A stretch of DNA of 64,000 nt from Escherichia coli (GTDB lineage: Bacteria; Pseudomonadota; Gammaproteobacteria; Enterobacterales; Enterobacteriaceae): NCBI RefSeq assembly GCF_003334355.1, contig NZ_QOWP01000024.1; one strand, written 5' to 3'. A program made the position numbers. Position 1 is the first letter of the stretch; every line of letters begins with the position of its first letter. Positions 42,401 to 51,400 of the stretch are shown here, piece after piece.

Positions 42401-45400
42401 CGTGTGGGTTATAAATCGGATGGGCGCATCAGCGGTTACAGCGCTGGGCTGTACGCGACCTGGTATCAGAACGATGCGAATAAGACCGGCGCTTATGTTG
42501 ACAGCTGGGCGCTGTATAACTGGTTTGATAACAGCGTCAGTTCCGATAACCGTTCTGCTGACGACTATGATTCTCGCGGTGTGACGGCCTCTGTTGAGGG
42601 TGGGTATACCTTTGAAGCGGGAACATTTAGCGGCAGCGAAGGGACGCTGAATACCTGGTACGTCCAGCCACAGGCGCAAATCACCTGGATGGGTGTGAAA
42701 GATTCCGACCATACCCGGAAAGACGGAACGCGCATTGAAACGGAAGGCGACGGAAATGTGCAAACGCGACTTGGGGTGAAAACCTACCTGAACAGTCATC
42801 ACCAGCGTGACGATGGTAAACAGCGTGAGTTCCAGCCTTACATTGAAGCGAACTGGATCAACAATAGCAAAGTCTACGCCGTGAAGATGAATGGTCAAAC
42901 CGTAGGCCGTGAAGGTGCGCGTAATCTCGGTGAAGTACGTACCGGGGTTGAGGCGAAAGTAAATAACAACCTTAGCCTGTGGGGGAATGTCGGTGTGCAA
43001 CTAGGTGATAAAGGCTATAGCGATACTCAGGGCATGCTGGGAGTGAAATATAGCTGGTAAACCGTATAAGCCGCATGTCGAGATGGCATGCGGCTTAATA
43101 TTGCCGACTTCAAACGGCGCATCAACGCCTTATTTAAATCCTCCTTTTTATCCGCGATCGCGGATATCGCAGCGTTTATCCCGTAGAGCGGATAAGATGT
43201 GTTTCCAGATTGACTTATCCTCACTAAAGGATAAAACTTATAATATCCCCTTAAGCGGATAAACTTGCTGTGAACGTATGACATGATGAGCTTTCAGAAG
43301 ATCTATAGCCCAACGCAATTGGCGAATGCAATGAAACTGGTTCGCCAGCAAAATGGCTGGACGCAGAGCGAGCTGGCGAAAAAAATTGGTATTAAGCAGG
43401 CGACGATTTCCAATTTCGAAAACAACCCTGACAATACCACGCTCACGACATTTTTTAAGATTTTACAGTCGCTTGAACTCTCAATGACGCTATGCGACGC
43501 GAAAAATGCCTCGCCAGAATCAACAGAACAGCAAAATCTGGAGTGGTAATGCCTAAACTTGTCACTTGGATGAACAACCAGCGGGTAGGCGAGTTAACGA
43601 AGTTAGCCAACGGCGCGCACACCTTTAAGTATGCACCGGAGTGGTTAGCAAGCCGTTATGCCAGACCGTTGTCACTTTCGCTGCCATTGCAGAGGGGGAA
43701 TATCACCTCTGATGCCGTATTTAACTTCTTCGATAACCTGTTACCCGATAGCCCGATTGTACGTGACCGGATCGTTAAACGTTATCATGCCAAATCCAGA
43801 CAACCGTTTGATTTATTGTCAGAAATAGGGCGAGACAGCGTTGGTGCCGTGACGTTAATACCCGAAGACGAAACCGTAACGCATCCGATAATGGCATGGG
43901 AAAAGCTTACTGAAGCCAGACTTGAAGAAGTATTAACGGCTTATAAAGCAGATATCCCGCTAGGCATGATTAGAGAAGAAAATGACTTTCGCATCTCGGT
44001 TGCTGGCGCACAGGAGAAGACAGCACTGCTCAGAATAGGCAATGACTGGTGCATTCCGAAAGGAATAACGCCGACGACGCACATCATTAAATTACCGATT
44101 GGCGAAATCAGGCAGCCCAATGCGACGCTCGATCTCAGCCAAAGCGTTGATAATGAGTATTACTGTCTGCTGCTGGCGAAAGAACTTGGGTTGAATGTTC
44201 CGGACGCAGAAATCATTAAAGCGGGAAATGTGCGCGCGTTAGCGGTCGAACGTTTTGACAGGCGTTGGAATGCTGAGCGAACGGTTTTACTTCGCTTGCC
44301 ACAGGAGGATATGTGTCAGACATTCGGTTTACCTTCATCGGTGAAATATGAATCAGATGGAGGCCCAGGCATCGCGCGGATCATGGCTTTTTTGATGGGG
44401 TCCAGCGAGGCGCTGAAAGATCGCTATGATTTTATGAAATTCCAGGTCTTCCAGTGGTTGATTGGCGCAACGGACGGTCATGCAAAAAACTTCTCCGTAT
44501 TTATTCAGGCTGGCGGCAGTTATCGACTCACGCCATTTTACGACATCATTTCAGCATTTCCGGTCCTTGGCGGTACGGGAATACACATCAGCGATCTCAA
44601 ACTGGCAATGGGGCTTAACGCATCCAAAGGCAAAAAAACGGCAATCGATAAAATTTATCCGCGACATTTTTTGGCGACAGCAAAGGTGCTGAGATTCCCG
44701 GAAGTGCAGATGCATGAAATCCTGAGTGACTTTGCCAGAATGATTCCAGCAGCACTGGATAACGTGAAGACTTCATTACCGACAGATTTTCCGGAGAACG
44801 TGGTGACGGCAGTTGAAAGCAATGTGTTGAGGTTGCATGGACGGTTAAGCCGAGAATACGGTAGTAAGTGAGATATGGGGTTTGGTCATTGTTAATGAGC
44901 ATGACAATCATGACCGCCAACGACTGGATTCTTCTTTGGTTTATATTAGTGCGCATAATGTATATTATGTTAAATCATGTCTGAGTGATGCGAAGTGCTT
45001 TTCTGGTAGTCGTTATTCGTTCAGGGTTCAAGAACTTAAGCCTCTCCTCTTTCATAATTGGCCTGTGCATGGAGAAATAGCCTGGTTATTCCCTGCCCCA
45101 TGCTAAGAGCGCAGTGTCTGTCGCATAGACACTGCATACGAAAACACCAGAGGGTGCTGTTACTTATTTAAGGACGGATCAAGCGGGAATGAGTCCACTC
45201 CGGTATCAGAAATGGCTACGTCTCAATGAAGTCAGGCGACCGATGCTGAATGAACATTACGATGTCACCACAGCAGCCTATGCTGTCGGTTACGAAAGCT
45301 ATCCCATTTCAGTCGGGAATATTCGCGGATGTTTGGAGAGTCACCCAAGAGAGATATTACCAGGTTAAGAAAGTCTGTCGGACAGCTTTAATAAACCCTG

Positions 45401-48400: not shown

Positions 48401-51400
48401 CGGCCGGTGGAGTTGTCATAAAAGCCGGGGAAGTTATTGCCCGTATTCATATGTATAAAATTGCCACGTTAGGAAGCGGAAATCCGCGTAATTTTACGTG
48501 GAATATTATTTCAAATAACAGTGTTGTTATGCCAACAGGCGGCTGCACTGTTGATAGTCGTAATGTCACCGTGAATCTCCCGGACTTTCCTGGAAGCGCA
48601 GAAATCCCCCTTGACGTATATTGCTCAAGTGAACAAAAGCTCTCATTTTATCTTTCGGGTGCCACCACTGACAGTGCCCGACAAGTGTTTGCTAACACAG
48701 CACCAGATGCAACAAAAACATCGGGAGTGGGTGTCTCTCTGATGCGTAATGGAAAAATACTGGCTACGGGAGAAAATGTCTCCTTGGGGACAGTAAATAA
48801 AAGCAAAGTACCTCTGGGTTTAAGCGCAACCTATGGACAAACAGGGAACAAAGTTTCAGCCGGAACCGTCCAGTCAGTCATTGGTGTCACTTTTATCTAT
48901 GAATAATTGTGATTTTGACCTTAGTCTATGCGCTCCATTCACGAAAATTGCGCGGATAATTATTTTGTGAAAGCTATTATCCTACACCTGTAAGAAAATC
49001 CGCGCACAATTGAAGCCAGAGTCTTATTTTTTATATTAAAAAATATGTTAATTTAAACACTATGAGAGATGATGCTTACCTTATCGTATTTAATCTATTG
49101 TTAAACGATAATAGATTAAAAATAGAAAGAGAGTAGTCCCCTACTCTTATATATCCATGTTGGCGATAATCCCTTTGTATGTACTGTGCATCATCGCTAT
49201 TACAAATCCTAATAATTCATTTCCACACAGGATAAGTAGATGAAGAAAAAAATTGAATCCTACCAGGGTGCTGCCGGTGGTTGGGGTGCTGTTAAATCCG
49301 TAGCGAATGCAGTACGTAAGCAGATGGATATACGCCAGGATGTTATTGCCATGTTTGACATGAATAAGCCAGAGGGCTTTGACTGTCCGGGTTGTGCATG
49401 GCCAGATCCTAAGCACAGTGCGTCATTCGACATTTGTGAAAACGGCGCAAAAGCAATCGCCTGGGAAGTCACGGATAAGCAGGTAAACGCCTCTTTCTTT
49501 GCTGAGAATACGGTTCAATCATTACTTACCTGGGGAGACCACGAGCTTGAGGCTGCGGGGCGACTCACTCAGCCTTTGAAATATGATGCCGTCAGCGACT
49601 GTTACAAGCCATTAAGCTGGCAACAAGCTTTCGATGAAATTGGCGCACGCCTTCAAAGCTATAGTGATCCCAATCAGGTTGAATTCTATACTTCGGGCCG
49701 CACTTCCAATGAAGCTGCCTTTCTTTATCAGCTTTTTGCCCGTGAATACGGGAGCAATAACTTTCCCGACTGCTCCAACATGTGCCATGAACCGACAAGC
49801 GTGGGTTTGGCAGCGAGTATCGGTGTAGGTAAAGGGACCGTGTTGCTGGAAGACTTTGAGAAGTGCGATTTAGTCATTTGCATTGGGCATAACCCTGGTA
49901 CAAACCACCCTCGCATGCTGACTTCGTTGCGCGCTTTAGTGAAACGGGGAGCGAAAATGATCGCCATCAATCCTCTACAGGAACGTGGCCTGGAGCGATT
50001 TACTGCACCGCAAAACCCGTTTGAAATGCTGACGAACTCTGAGACTCAGTTGGCCAGTGCCTACTATAACGTGCGCATTGGTGGTGATATGGCGTTGCTC
50101 AAGGGGATGATGCGCCTGTTAATTGAGCGCGATGATGCTGCAAGCGCCGCAGGTCGGCCCTCATTGCTGGATGACGAATTTATTCAAACGCATACCGTCG
50201 GCTTTGACGAGCTACGCCGTGACGTTCTCAATTCCGAGTGGAAAGATATCGAACGTATTTCTGGATTAAGTCAGACTCAAATCGCCGAACTGGCTGATGC
50301 ATATGCCGCTGCCGAACGAACCATTATCTGTTACGGAATGGGGATCACTCAGCACGAACATGGTACCCAGAATGTACAGCAACTGGTCAATCTGCTGTTG
50401 ATGAAAGGTAACATTGGCAAGCCTGGTGCGGGTATCTGCCCACTACGTGGCCACTCTAATGTACAGGGCGACCGAACCGTCGGTATCACCGAGAAACCGT
50501 CTGCAGAGTTTCTGGCTCGCCTGGGTGAGCGCTATGGCTTCACACCACCTCAAGCACCTGGACATGCTGCAATTGCCAGCATGCAAGCAATATGTACAGG
50601 GCAGGCTCGAGCATTGATCTGCATGGGGGGCAACTTTGCACTGGCAATGCCAGATCGGGAAGCGAGCGCTGTACCGTTAACGCAATTAGATCTGGCGGTA
50701 CACGTAGCCACTAAGCTTAACCGCTCTCATCTGCTGACCGCACGGCATAGCTATATTCTGCCGGTTCTGGGACGTAGCGAGATTGACATGCAAAAAAGCG
50801 GTGCGCAGGCGGTAACCGTTGAGGATTCAATGTCGATGATTCATGCCTCGCGTGGCGTGTTAAAACCCGCCGGTGTAATGCTGAAATCAGAGTGTGCAGT
50901 GGTCGCGGGAATCGCGCAGGCAGCACTACCCCAGAGCGTGGTAGCCTGGGAGTATCTGGTGGAAGATTATGATCGCATTCGCAATGACATTGAAGCTGTG
51001 CTGCCAGAGTTCGCCGATTATAACCAGCGCATCCGACATCCTGGTGGTTTTCACCTGATAAACGCTGCTGCTGAAAGGCGCTGGATGACTCAGTCAGGTA
51101 AGGCTAATTTCATTACCAGCAAAGGGCTGTTAGAAGATCCCTCTTCAGCGTTTAACAGTAAGCTGGTCATGGCGACAGTACGCAGCCACGATCAGTACAA
51201 CACGACGATTTATGGTATGGATGATCGCTATCGAGGGGTATTCGGTCAACGAGATGTGGTCTTTATGAGTGCTAAACAAGCTAAAATTTGCCGTGTAAAA
51301 AACGGCGAAAGAGTTAATCTTATTGCGCTTACGCCAGACGGTAAGCGCAGCTCACGCCGCATGGATAGATTAAAAGTGGTCATTTACCCTATGGCTGACC

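Follow-up and report, generated by a model that had tools for sequence, protein, structure and literature searches.

The stretch between hipBA and ydeP in the 64-kb piece of Escherichia coli DNA analyzed here (the window) is very probably, judging from its gene order and sequence, a K-12-type allele of F9 (Fml/Yde), the core-associated chaperone-usher fimbrial operon, in disrupted form. The allele would have arisen by one illegitimate-recombination deletion of 3,279 bp, extending from +72 of the 251-nt f9 5′UTR to usher codon 475; what remained of the leader, the genes for the major subunit and the chaperone, and the usher's N-terminal 54% would have been lost with it. The product would be an f9 promoter and a 72-nt leader joined to a start-less, signal-less usher fragment, followed by the genes for two adaptors and a FmlH-type adhesin. 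That F9 is disrupted in K-12 and phylogroup A has been published before, which the first-pass annotation had missed, the pseudogenes are annotated in RefSeq, and the disrupted allele was previously tabulated for MG1655 and all phylogroup A strains. F9 has been described as core-associated, 'intact or disrupted at the same locus', and 9 of the 12 CU operons of MG1655 as intact (PMC3559732). Added here are the breakpoints at base level, with their 1-bp microhomology, the survival of the mapped f9 promoter and 72 nt of leader, the frequency of the junction, and evidence that neither an inverted repeat next to the junction nor an AraC remnant upstream of it is a product of the deletion. The features of the locus are:

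45183-45391, + strand: yneL, AraC/XylS-type remnant (HTH_18), a pseudogene comprising the last ~69 codons, with a -1 frameshift near 45298/45299
45538-45567, + strand: f9 promoter, with a -35 element TAGTCA (45538-45543), an 18-nt spacer and a -10 element CATAAT (45562-45567)
45574, + strand: putative f9 transcription start (G), equivalent to the CFT073 +1
45619-45644, + strand: 8-bp inverted repeat CAACAAGT-N10-ACTTGTTG, +46 to +71 of the f9 5′UTR, native to the operon
45645-45647, no strand: deletion junction placed by blastn and alignment, both flanks meeting at G45646 with a 1-bp microhomology
45646-46872, + strand: ydeT′, usher codons 476-883, i.e., the second half of the barrel and the C-terminal domain; RefSeq pseudogene
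46886-47416, + strand: ydeS, intact FimF-like adaptor of 176 aa (NCBIfam FimF, 239.7 bits; cut-off 200)
47429-47932, + strand: ydeR, intact FimG-like adaptor of 167 aa (NCBIfam FimG, 256 bits; cut-off 220)
47992-48906, + strand: ydeQ, intact two-domain tip adhesin of 304 aa, FmlH/FmlD orthologue

The locus occupies the syntenic position of F9, with hipB and hipA (43283-44871) on its 5′ side and ydeP (49240-51519) on its 3′ side. The order hipBA-F9-ydeP was also found in O157, ST131 and K-12, and this flanking of F9 is stated in PMC3966885. The intact reference operon of O157 reads major subunit, chaperone, usher, ydeS, ydeR and ydeQ, whereas the window shows the K-12-type arrangement of a yneL remnant, ydeT′ and open ydeS, ydeR and ydeQ genes. 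When the O157 major subunit, chaperone and usher were used as tblastn queries against the whole 64-kb window, usher residues 475-883 alone were matched, as the first-pass annotation had claimed in reporting no chaperone, major subunit or N-terminal half of the usher. What remains of the F9 operon is hence the C-terminal 46% of the usher, two minor subunits and the adhesin, and the alignment to the intact O157 locus, together with this domain content, confirmed the description of a decayed chaperone-usher operon. An Rfam scan of the window gave no match within the locus range 44872-48906.

The assignment of ydeT′ to the C-terminal half of a FimD-like usher held up against Pfam, NCBIfam and the O157 usher. 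The fragment aligned to positions 259-549 of the 549 of the Pfam Usher model and to PapC_C, with PapC_N absent, to positions 496-877 of the 877 of the NCBIfam usher profile, and by tblastn to residues 476-883 of the 883-aa O157 usher. It cannot be counted as a FimD/PapC usher, being without signal peptide, N-terminal domain, plug and full 24-strand barrel. Its first in-frame start is the ATG at 45724 (ORF 45724-46872), and an in-frame stop lies upstream at 45634-45636.

Relative to the intact O157:H7 locus (L001 5722-9000), blastn and alignment showed that the 3,279 bp are missing as a single deletion, which took away the genes for the major subunit and the chaperone, the first 475 codons of the usher and 179 nt of leader. 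This alignment defined both endpoints and placed the junction at 45646, where usher homology had been noted to begin. The identical junction was present in 1,375 of 5,426 complete E. coli genomes (25%), and at least 80% of the deleted segment was present in 3,538 of the same 5,426. One historical event could account for all the carriers of the junction, so that n = 1.

The f9 promoter of CFT073 was mapped by 5′-RACE and consists of a -35 element TAGTCG, 18 bp and a -10 element CATAAT (PMC3966885). The layout in the window is identical to this map, and by its sequence elements the segment 45538-45574 qualifies as the f9 promoter. The equivalent start G is located exactly 251 nt upstream of the major-subunit ATG in O157, ST131 and MINF_7C, as reported for CFT073. 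A consensus scan for promoters and terminators did not outperform shuffles in the region (11 sites, 9.8 expected), the mapped f9 promoter being among its sites. The deletion therefore leaves the mapped f9 promoter and 72 nt of its leader, joined to usher codon 476; the first-pass annotation had missed that both are retained. The sequence identity to the CFT073 promoter suggests that the remnant can still be transcribed from P_f9, and polarity across the untranslated ydeT′ segment appears likely. In CFT073, H-NS represses P_f9 at 37°C, and fimbrial expression occurs at 20°C. Genomic SELEX lists further sites bound by the holoenzyme in vitro, both in the spacer of ydeR and ydeQ and in the stretch from ydeS to hipA, and hence transcription of the remnant could have other origins. 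Literature searches on ydeQRS expression in K-12 turned up only a screen by overexpression, a mention in the transcriptome of a multidrug-resistant isolate, and the in-vitro SELEX peaks, none of them decisive.

We then considered whether the 8-bp inverted repeat marks the deletion junction, as the first-pass annotation had suggested. The repeat exists at exactly 45619-45644, with its arms CAACAAGT at 45619-45626 and ACTTGTTG at 45637-45644, and it ends 2 nt before the junction base 45646, so that its position at the junction stands. It is not, however, a deletion scar, because it is present in all the intact loci examined. It falls inside 151 bp that are matched by intact genomes at 97-100% identity, and in five other loci (O157, ST131 and MINF_7C, which carry an intact F9, a canine isolate and a divergent strain) conserved arms enclose variable loops. 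The divergent strain has one change in an arm, to a G.U-compatible base, and no compensatory changes were found in the five loci. An RNA hairpin is predicted at the repeat, at -11.8 kcal/mol in the context of the window and -10.1 kcal/mol in the intact context; taken as a whole, the leader has a fold that does not stand out (z = -0.3).

A native repeat might still have been mechanistically involved, if a hairpin or cruciform in the leader had stalled replication or had been cleaved, leaving the breakpoint at its 3′ edge. The breakpoint does lie 2 nt past a repeat at which a hairpin is predicted to form, and only 0.85% of the window positions are no more than 2 nt from the outer edge of a perfect inverted repeat with arms of 8 bp or longer (~2% when two breakpoints are considered). 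The repeat alone is not beyond chance, the window having 46 distinct perfect inverted repeats (arms of 8 bp or longer, loops of 3-20 nt) against 14.4 ± 3.4 in shuffles; its adjacency to the breakpoint is mildly unusual, in a calculation made post hoc. Furthermore, the short stem consists mostly of A/T pairs, no repeat is found at the right breakpoint, and the microhomology measures just 1 bp. Two other deletions arose independently in the operon, and their four breakpoints all lack a nearby inverted repeat of 7 bp or longer; the carriers of the junction, for their part, are consistent with one event. We consider such an involvement unlikely. The repeat was also rejected as a general feature of deletions in the F9 operon, since three independent deletions provide five further breakpoints and no inverted repeat lies near any of these.

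The AraC remnant had been described as a frameshifted C-terminal HTH fragment, and this was borne out by tblastn with the 89-aa O157 remnant, which matched in two frames, 45183-45299 and 45299-45388. The frameshift is due to a 1-nt deletion relative to O157 and MINF_7C, as observed in the alignment. RefSeq labels yneL in K-12 and PSS-12 as 'frameshifted; incomplete; missing N-terminus'. The O157 version carries the Pfam domain HTH_18 (E = 1.3e-22) and aligns to the last ~80 positions of family models of 280-330 aa, and the ~69 frameshifted HTH codons of the window thus fall short of an AraC/XylS regulator, which has about 250-330 aa, with a double HTH at the C-terminus and a domain for sensing or dimerisation at the N-terminus. 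Fimbrial operons are commonly flanked by AraC-type activators, and yneL is directly upstream of F9 and on the same strand, so that it could be seen as a former dedicated F9 regulator that was lost in the same decay of the locus. The first-pass annotation had counted yneL as part of the decayed fimbrial locus, and a shared decay event was not supported. The gene is N-terminally truncated also in O157 and MINF_7C, where F9 is intact, and its truncation is therefore separate from the F9 deletion. A full-length ancestor was not found among the 120 best protein matches listed, all of at most 154 aa, and all the sampled E. coli annotations read 'missing N-terminus'. The nearest families are of the RclR/RhaS/FtrA type (FtrA/GlxA) rather than the fimbrial activators (Rns/AggR-type), and in MINF_7C the remnant adjoins a redox-enzyme cluster. 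A dedicated regulator of F9 is accordingly improbable, and yneL is the remnant of another gene that decayed earlier; every E. coli examined has it in truncated form, and here it is further shortened and frameshifted. PMC3966885 states that no evidence connects the upstream regulators with f9, and nothing ties yneL to the fimbriae.

The three subunit genes downstream of ydeT′ have no internal stops, their lengths equal those in intact loci, and all of them encode signal peptides, which confirmed the claim that they are intact. YdeS is 45% identical to FimF (PDB 6e14) and YdeR is 57% identical to FimG. YdeQ carries the Pfam domains FimH_man-bind and Fimbrial. It shares 98% identity with its ST131 counterpart, and its match to the lectin domain of FmlH (PDB 6aow) has E = 1.8e-107, as expected of an FmlH orthologue. 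The genes are also orphaned, as had been claimed, i.e., they are left without their cognate assembly machinery, and if the proteins are made they should not be able to enter F9 pili without the cognate chaperone and usher. The locus is predicted from its sequence to be non-functional for F9 fimbriation, and no F9 surface assembly is expected where both chaperone and major subunit are gone and just half an usher is left.

The intactness of ydeS, ydeR and ydeQ is neither support for nor a refutation of a loss of function. In the comparison of the window with K-12, ydeT′, ydeS and ydeR were 100% identical, with zero differences over 2.3 kb, and all 24 differences were in ydeQ, past a recombination boundary near 47970, which makes ydeQ a recombinant allele relative to K-12. 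The Nei-Gojobori dN/dS for ydeS, ydeR and ydeQ (~0.12) says nothing on selection, because all the differences come from the imported ydeQ allele and not from divergence since the deletion.

The intact F9 operons of CFT073 (c1931-c1936) and O157:H7, with FmlH as the adhesin, share with the window the locus, the promoter elements and the leader up to +72. Orthology at 98-99% DNA identity extends over the C-terminal part of the usher, ydeS, ydeR and ydeQ. They keep the major subunit, the chaperone, usher codons 1-475 and the 179 nt of leader, all of which the window lacks. The closest paralogous system is that of the type 1 fimbriae (fimAICDFGH), at a separate locus. The alignment of YdeQ with FimH is full-length (E = 2e-81), the tip order is the same in both systems (adhesin, G-like adaptor, F-like adaptor), and the lost F9 chaperone is FimC-like. 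Type 1 fimbriae have their assembly genes, whereas the F9 remnant does not, and the locus is without the fimS invertible switch, the 8-bp repeat having a spacer of only 10 nt. According to PMC3966885, the F9 adhesin is specific for galactosides and not for mannose.

This likeness raises the alternative that the orphan tip subunits are still used, with YdeS, YdeR and YdeQ chaperoned by FimC and assembled by FimD into type 1 pili with a galactoside-binding tip. YdeS and YdeR exceed the NCBIfam equivalog cut-offs for FimF and FimG, the N-terminal donor strand of YdeR, ADVTITVNGRVVAKPCT, differs from that of FimG in one residue, FimC and the lost chaperone are close paralogues (E = 8e-89), and the three genes are open with signal peptides. 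However, YdeS and YdeR share only 45% and 57% identity with FimF and FimG, no experimental support for a hybrid tip was found in the literature searched, and the youth of the haplotype, without a difference from K-12 over 2.3 kb, explains the intactness. H-NS silencing and the probable polarity would in addition hold expression of ydeS-ydeR-ydeQ low. The operon has also been broken repeatedly and differently in other lineages, which argues for its dispensability; independent disruptions were found in E. coli B, the canine isolate and an IS2 carrier. In E. coli B/BL21, of the same phylogroup and with YdeS, YdeR and YdeQ proteins identical to those of K-12, the lesion is a different one: a 663-bp deletion (O157 5432-6094) takes the promoter and leaves the AraC remnant fused to the gene for the major subunit, of which the 3′ part is kept, and the chaperone has a stop codon and the usher a frameshift and a stop. 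The resulting yneL-fimA-like fusion of E. coli B is described in PMC9308461. Use of the orphan subunits in type 1 pili is thus very unlikely, and the specific form in which the retained f9 promoter, controlled by H-NS and temperature, drives ydeS-ydeR-ydeQ and the FmlH tip complex enters FimC/FimD pili at low temperature is slightly less likely again.

Since K-12 laboratory strains carry the truncation, it might be suspected of being no natural allele and of having arisen in the laboratory or through faulty assembly. This is refuted by the same junction in the 1,375 complete genomes, which come from humans, pigs, mice, manure and other sources, and by the window itself, which is not K-12 (it has another ydeQ-ydeP haplotype and an open autotransporter gene).

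The points added here, on the breakpoints, the surviving promoter and leader, the junction frequency, and the repeat and AraC remnant, are useful for the interpretation of ydeQRS expression data in K-12, or where K-12 is taken as a 'clean' F9/FmlH host. If the orphan tip subunits were, against the balance of evidence, assembled by FimC and FimD, some type 1 pili would gain a galactoside-binding tip in the quarter of E. coli that bears the deletion.

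The interval analyzed (44872-48906), whose first base directly follows the hipA stop codon and whose last base is that of the ydeQ stop codon, is the well-known pseudogenised F9 operon; in RefSeq, ydeT and the HTH gene already carry pseudogene labels. The following elements were located:

45183-45388, AraC remnant (tblastn with the 89-aa O157 AraC-type fragment, match in two reading frames)
45538-45543, 45562-45567 and G45574, the -35 element, -10 element and predicted transcription start of the f9 promoter (by match to the CFT073 elements)
45619-45626 and 45637-45644, inverted repeat CAACAAGT/ACTTGTTG (exact position)
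46886-47416, ydeS, open fimbrial subunit gene
47429-47932, ydeR, open fimbrial subunit gene
47992-48906, ydeQ, open fimbrial subunit gene

The ORF ahead of ydeS encodes the back part of an usher only, matching positions 496-877 of the 877-position fimbrial usher profile (NCBIfam), and positions 259-549 of 549 of Usher together with PapC_C (Pfam); PapC_N was not found in its product with Pfam. YdeS and YdeR pass the curated NCBIfam thresholds for FimF and FimG, and YdeQ has a FimH-type lectin domain and a pilin domain, with a match to the solved lectin domain of FmlH, the F9 adhesin (E = 1.8e-107). The sequence description in the first-pass annotation was therefore accurate.

That annotation had proposed that the fimbrial locus decayed by deletion, and alignment to an intact operon gave both endpoints. 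In the intact arrangement, of which O157:H7 NE 1092-2 is an example, the AraC remnant is followed by the fimA-like major subunit, chaperone, 883-aa usher, ydeS, ydeR, ydeQ and ydeP. By blastn, positions 4455-5721 of the O157 locus correspond to 44400-45646 of the window, and positions 9001-9755 to 45646-46400; therefore 3,279 bp are missing as one piece, from a point 179 nt ahead of the major-subunit ATG to usher codon 475. The absence of a chaperone and of an usher N-terminus, also claimed earlier, held when both were sought across the 64 kb: with the O157 major subunit, chaperone and usher as tblastn queries, usher residues 475-883 were the sole match. The single G at 45646 is the sole sequence common to both flanks, hence the deletion is attributed to illegitimate recombination and not to a repeat-mediated event.

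The inverted repeat, which had been proposed as a possible mark of the junction, lies in the f9 5′UTR at +46 to +71, and the deletion begins at +72/+73. It is neither product nor marker of the deletion, since O157, ST131 and MINF_7C, whose operon is intact, have it as well, and there, as in a canine isolate, the arms are kept directly left of the breakpoint position. A causal role in the deletion is improbable: the adjacency is mildly unusual, 0.85% of window positions being within 2 nt of the outer edge of such a repeat, but this figure was calculated after the fact, and no repeat lies near the other K-12-type breakpoint or near any of the four breakpoints of two other operon deletions. The window holds 46 inverted repeats of that kind, so that the leader repeat alone is unremarkable. 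A divergent strain (89% identity) keeps it with one A-to-G change that still allows a G.U pair. Among six loci (the window, O157 locus L001 at 5694-5719, and the equivalents in loci L002, L004, L005 and L007) the 8-bp arms are invariant but for one A-to-G, with most of the substitutions and indels located in the 10-nt loop (GCAGCAATAA, GCTGCAATAA, GCAGTTATAA, GCACAATAA). This pattern hints that the palindrome arms are under constraint, whether through an RNA hairpin in the f9 leader or through a protein site there. A small RNA hairpin is predicted for the repeat in both the window and the intact context; the predicted fold of the complete f9 leader is no stronger than that of shuffled sequence.

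The deletion leaves the f9 promoter and 72 nt of leader fused to the usher fragment. The CFT073 transcription start is a G that precedes the major-subunit ATG by 251 nt, with -35 TAGTCG, an 18-bp spacer and -10 CATAAT (Wurpel et al. 2014, PMC3966885), and the elements are at exactly this distance in ST131, MINF_7C and O157. The same source describes the CFT073 promoter as H-NS-bound and repressed at 37 C, with fimbriae expressed at 20 C. The usher frame has a stop at 45634-45636, its first start codon is ATG 45724, with no obvious Shine-Dalgarno ahead of it, and the ydeT' product has no signal peptide; these features suggest that the 1.2-kb ydeT' segment is probably untranslated or gives a cytoplasmic fragment. 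Polarity would affect any transcript that extends into ydeS, a gene with an AAGGAA ribosome-binding site of its own. In-vitro holoenzyme sites listed by genomic SELEX fall in the spacer of ydeR and ydeQ and in the stretch from hipA to ydeS, so other transcription start points are possible.

YdeS, YdeR and YdeQ would be unable to form F9 pili without their cognate chaperone and usher. That FimC/FimD adopt the orphan YdeS-YdeR-YdeQ tip would be very doubtful: the YdeR donor strand differs from that of FimG by one residue and the lost F9 chaperone is a close FimC paralogue, but the operon was lost repeatedly and independently. The openness of ydeS, ydeR and ydeQ carries no weight on whether the orphans are maintained. 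From the junction through ydeR the sequence is identical to that of K-12, and all 24 coding differences in the interval are in ydeQ, whose allele is closer to that of O157 than to that of K-12. With 8 differences over 9.1 kb (38873-47969) against 103 over 6.7 kb (47970-54710), the comparison places a recombination boundary relative to K-12 near 47970, in the ydeR-ydeQ spacer (47933-47991). The segment with ydeQ, ydeP, safA and ydeO (47970-54710) derives from another lineage than that of K-12. Since the ydeQ differences represent a recombined allele, the dN/dS of ~0.12 for the orphan genes against K-12 reflects history in other lineages.

The AraC remnant, earlier read as part of the fimbrial decay, is a matter separate from the deletion: all genomes examined have it without an N-terminus, even where the F9 operon is intact. 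The 89-aa O157 fragment matches Pfam HTH_18 (E = 1.3e-22); in the window the remnant is shortened further (homology from near 45185) and frameshifted, having lost 1 nt that other strains have. Among regulator families it aligns best with the last ~80 residues of the RclR, RhaS and FtrA/GlxA types, and no full-length homologue was present among the best 120 matches of a large protein search, all ≤154 aa. The f9 5′ flank is variable, with no evidence tying the upstream regulators to f9 (PMC3966885). MINF_7C (L007 1-3041) has neither hipBA nor the autotransporter gene, and NAD(P)H oxidoreductase, aldo/keto reductase, quinol monooxygenase and carboxymuconolactone decarboxylase-family genes precede the remnant; this redox-enzyme cluster may have been the regulator's original target. 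PSS-12, which apart from this matches the window at 100% identity over the interval, has an IS3-family element (L009 45415-46643; window ~45391-45392) between the remnant and the f9 promoter, a spacer that carries IS1 in other strains. Two further features of the window were recorded:

37640-43060, + strand, ECSE_1600-family autotransporter gene, one open 1,806-aa ORF (annotated frameshifted in K-12; frameshifted and with an internal stop in the near-identical PSS-12)
6533-6746, + strand, STnc560 (Hfq-binding sRNA family), full-length and sole Rfam match at gathering threshold, 281.9 bits (annotated IS5 copy at the corresponding PSS-12 coordinates, L009 5912-6892)

By megablast the locus is present in 5,415 of 5,426 complete E. 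coli genomes, and in most of these 5,415 the homology starts only at 45646. The K-12-type junction was matched end to end by a 300-bp probe in 1,375 of the 5,426, among them K-12, ATCC 8739 and human, pig and mouse isolates, and at least 80% of the deleted 3,279 bp is present in 3,538. Other disruptions differ: in E. coli B a 663-bp deletion has brought the AraC remnant and the 3′ portion of the major-subunit gene together in a chimeric 'YneL' with a FimA-like domain (L006 3887-4369; treated in PMC9308461), the canine isolate lacks 1,843 bp, and in strain 20AR0192 IS2 interrupts the major-subunit gene. E. coli B also carries an internal stop in the chaperone gene, together with a frameshift and a stop in that of the usher. 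The f9 operon was described as six genes between hipBA and ydeP (Wurpel et al. 2014, PMC3966885), and in PMC3559732 (Wurpel et al. 2013) F9 falls into the core-associated class, 'intact or disrupted at the same locus'; the anatomy of the locus, the frequency of the junction and the differing disruptions agree with this literature on F9.
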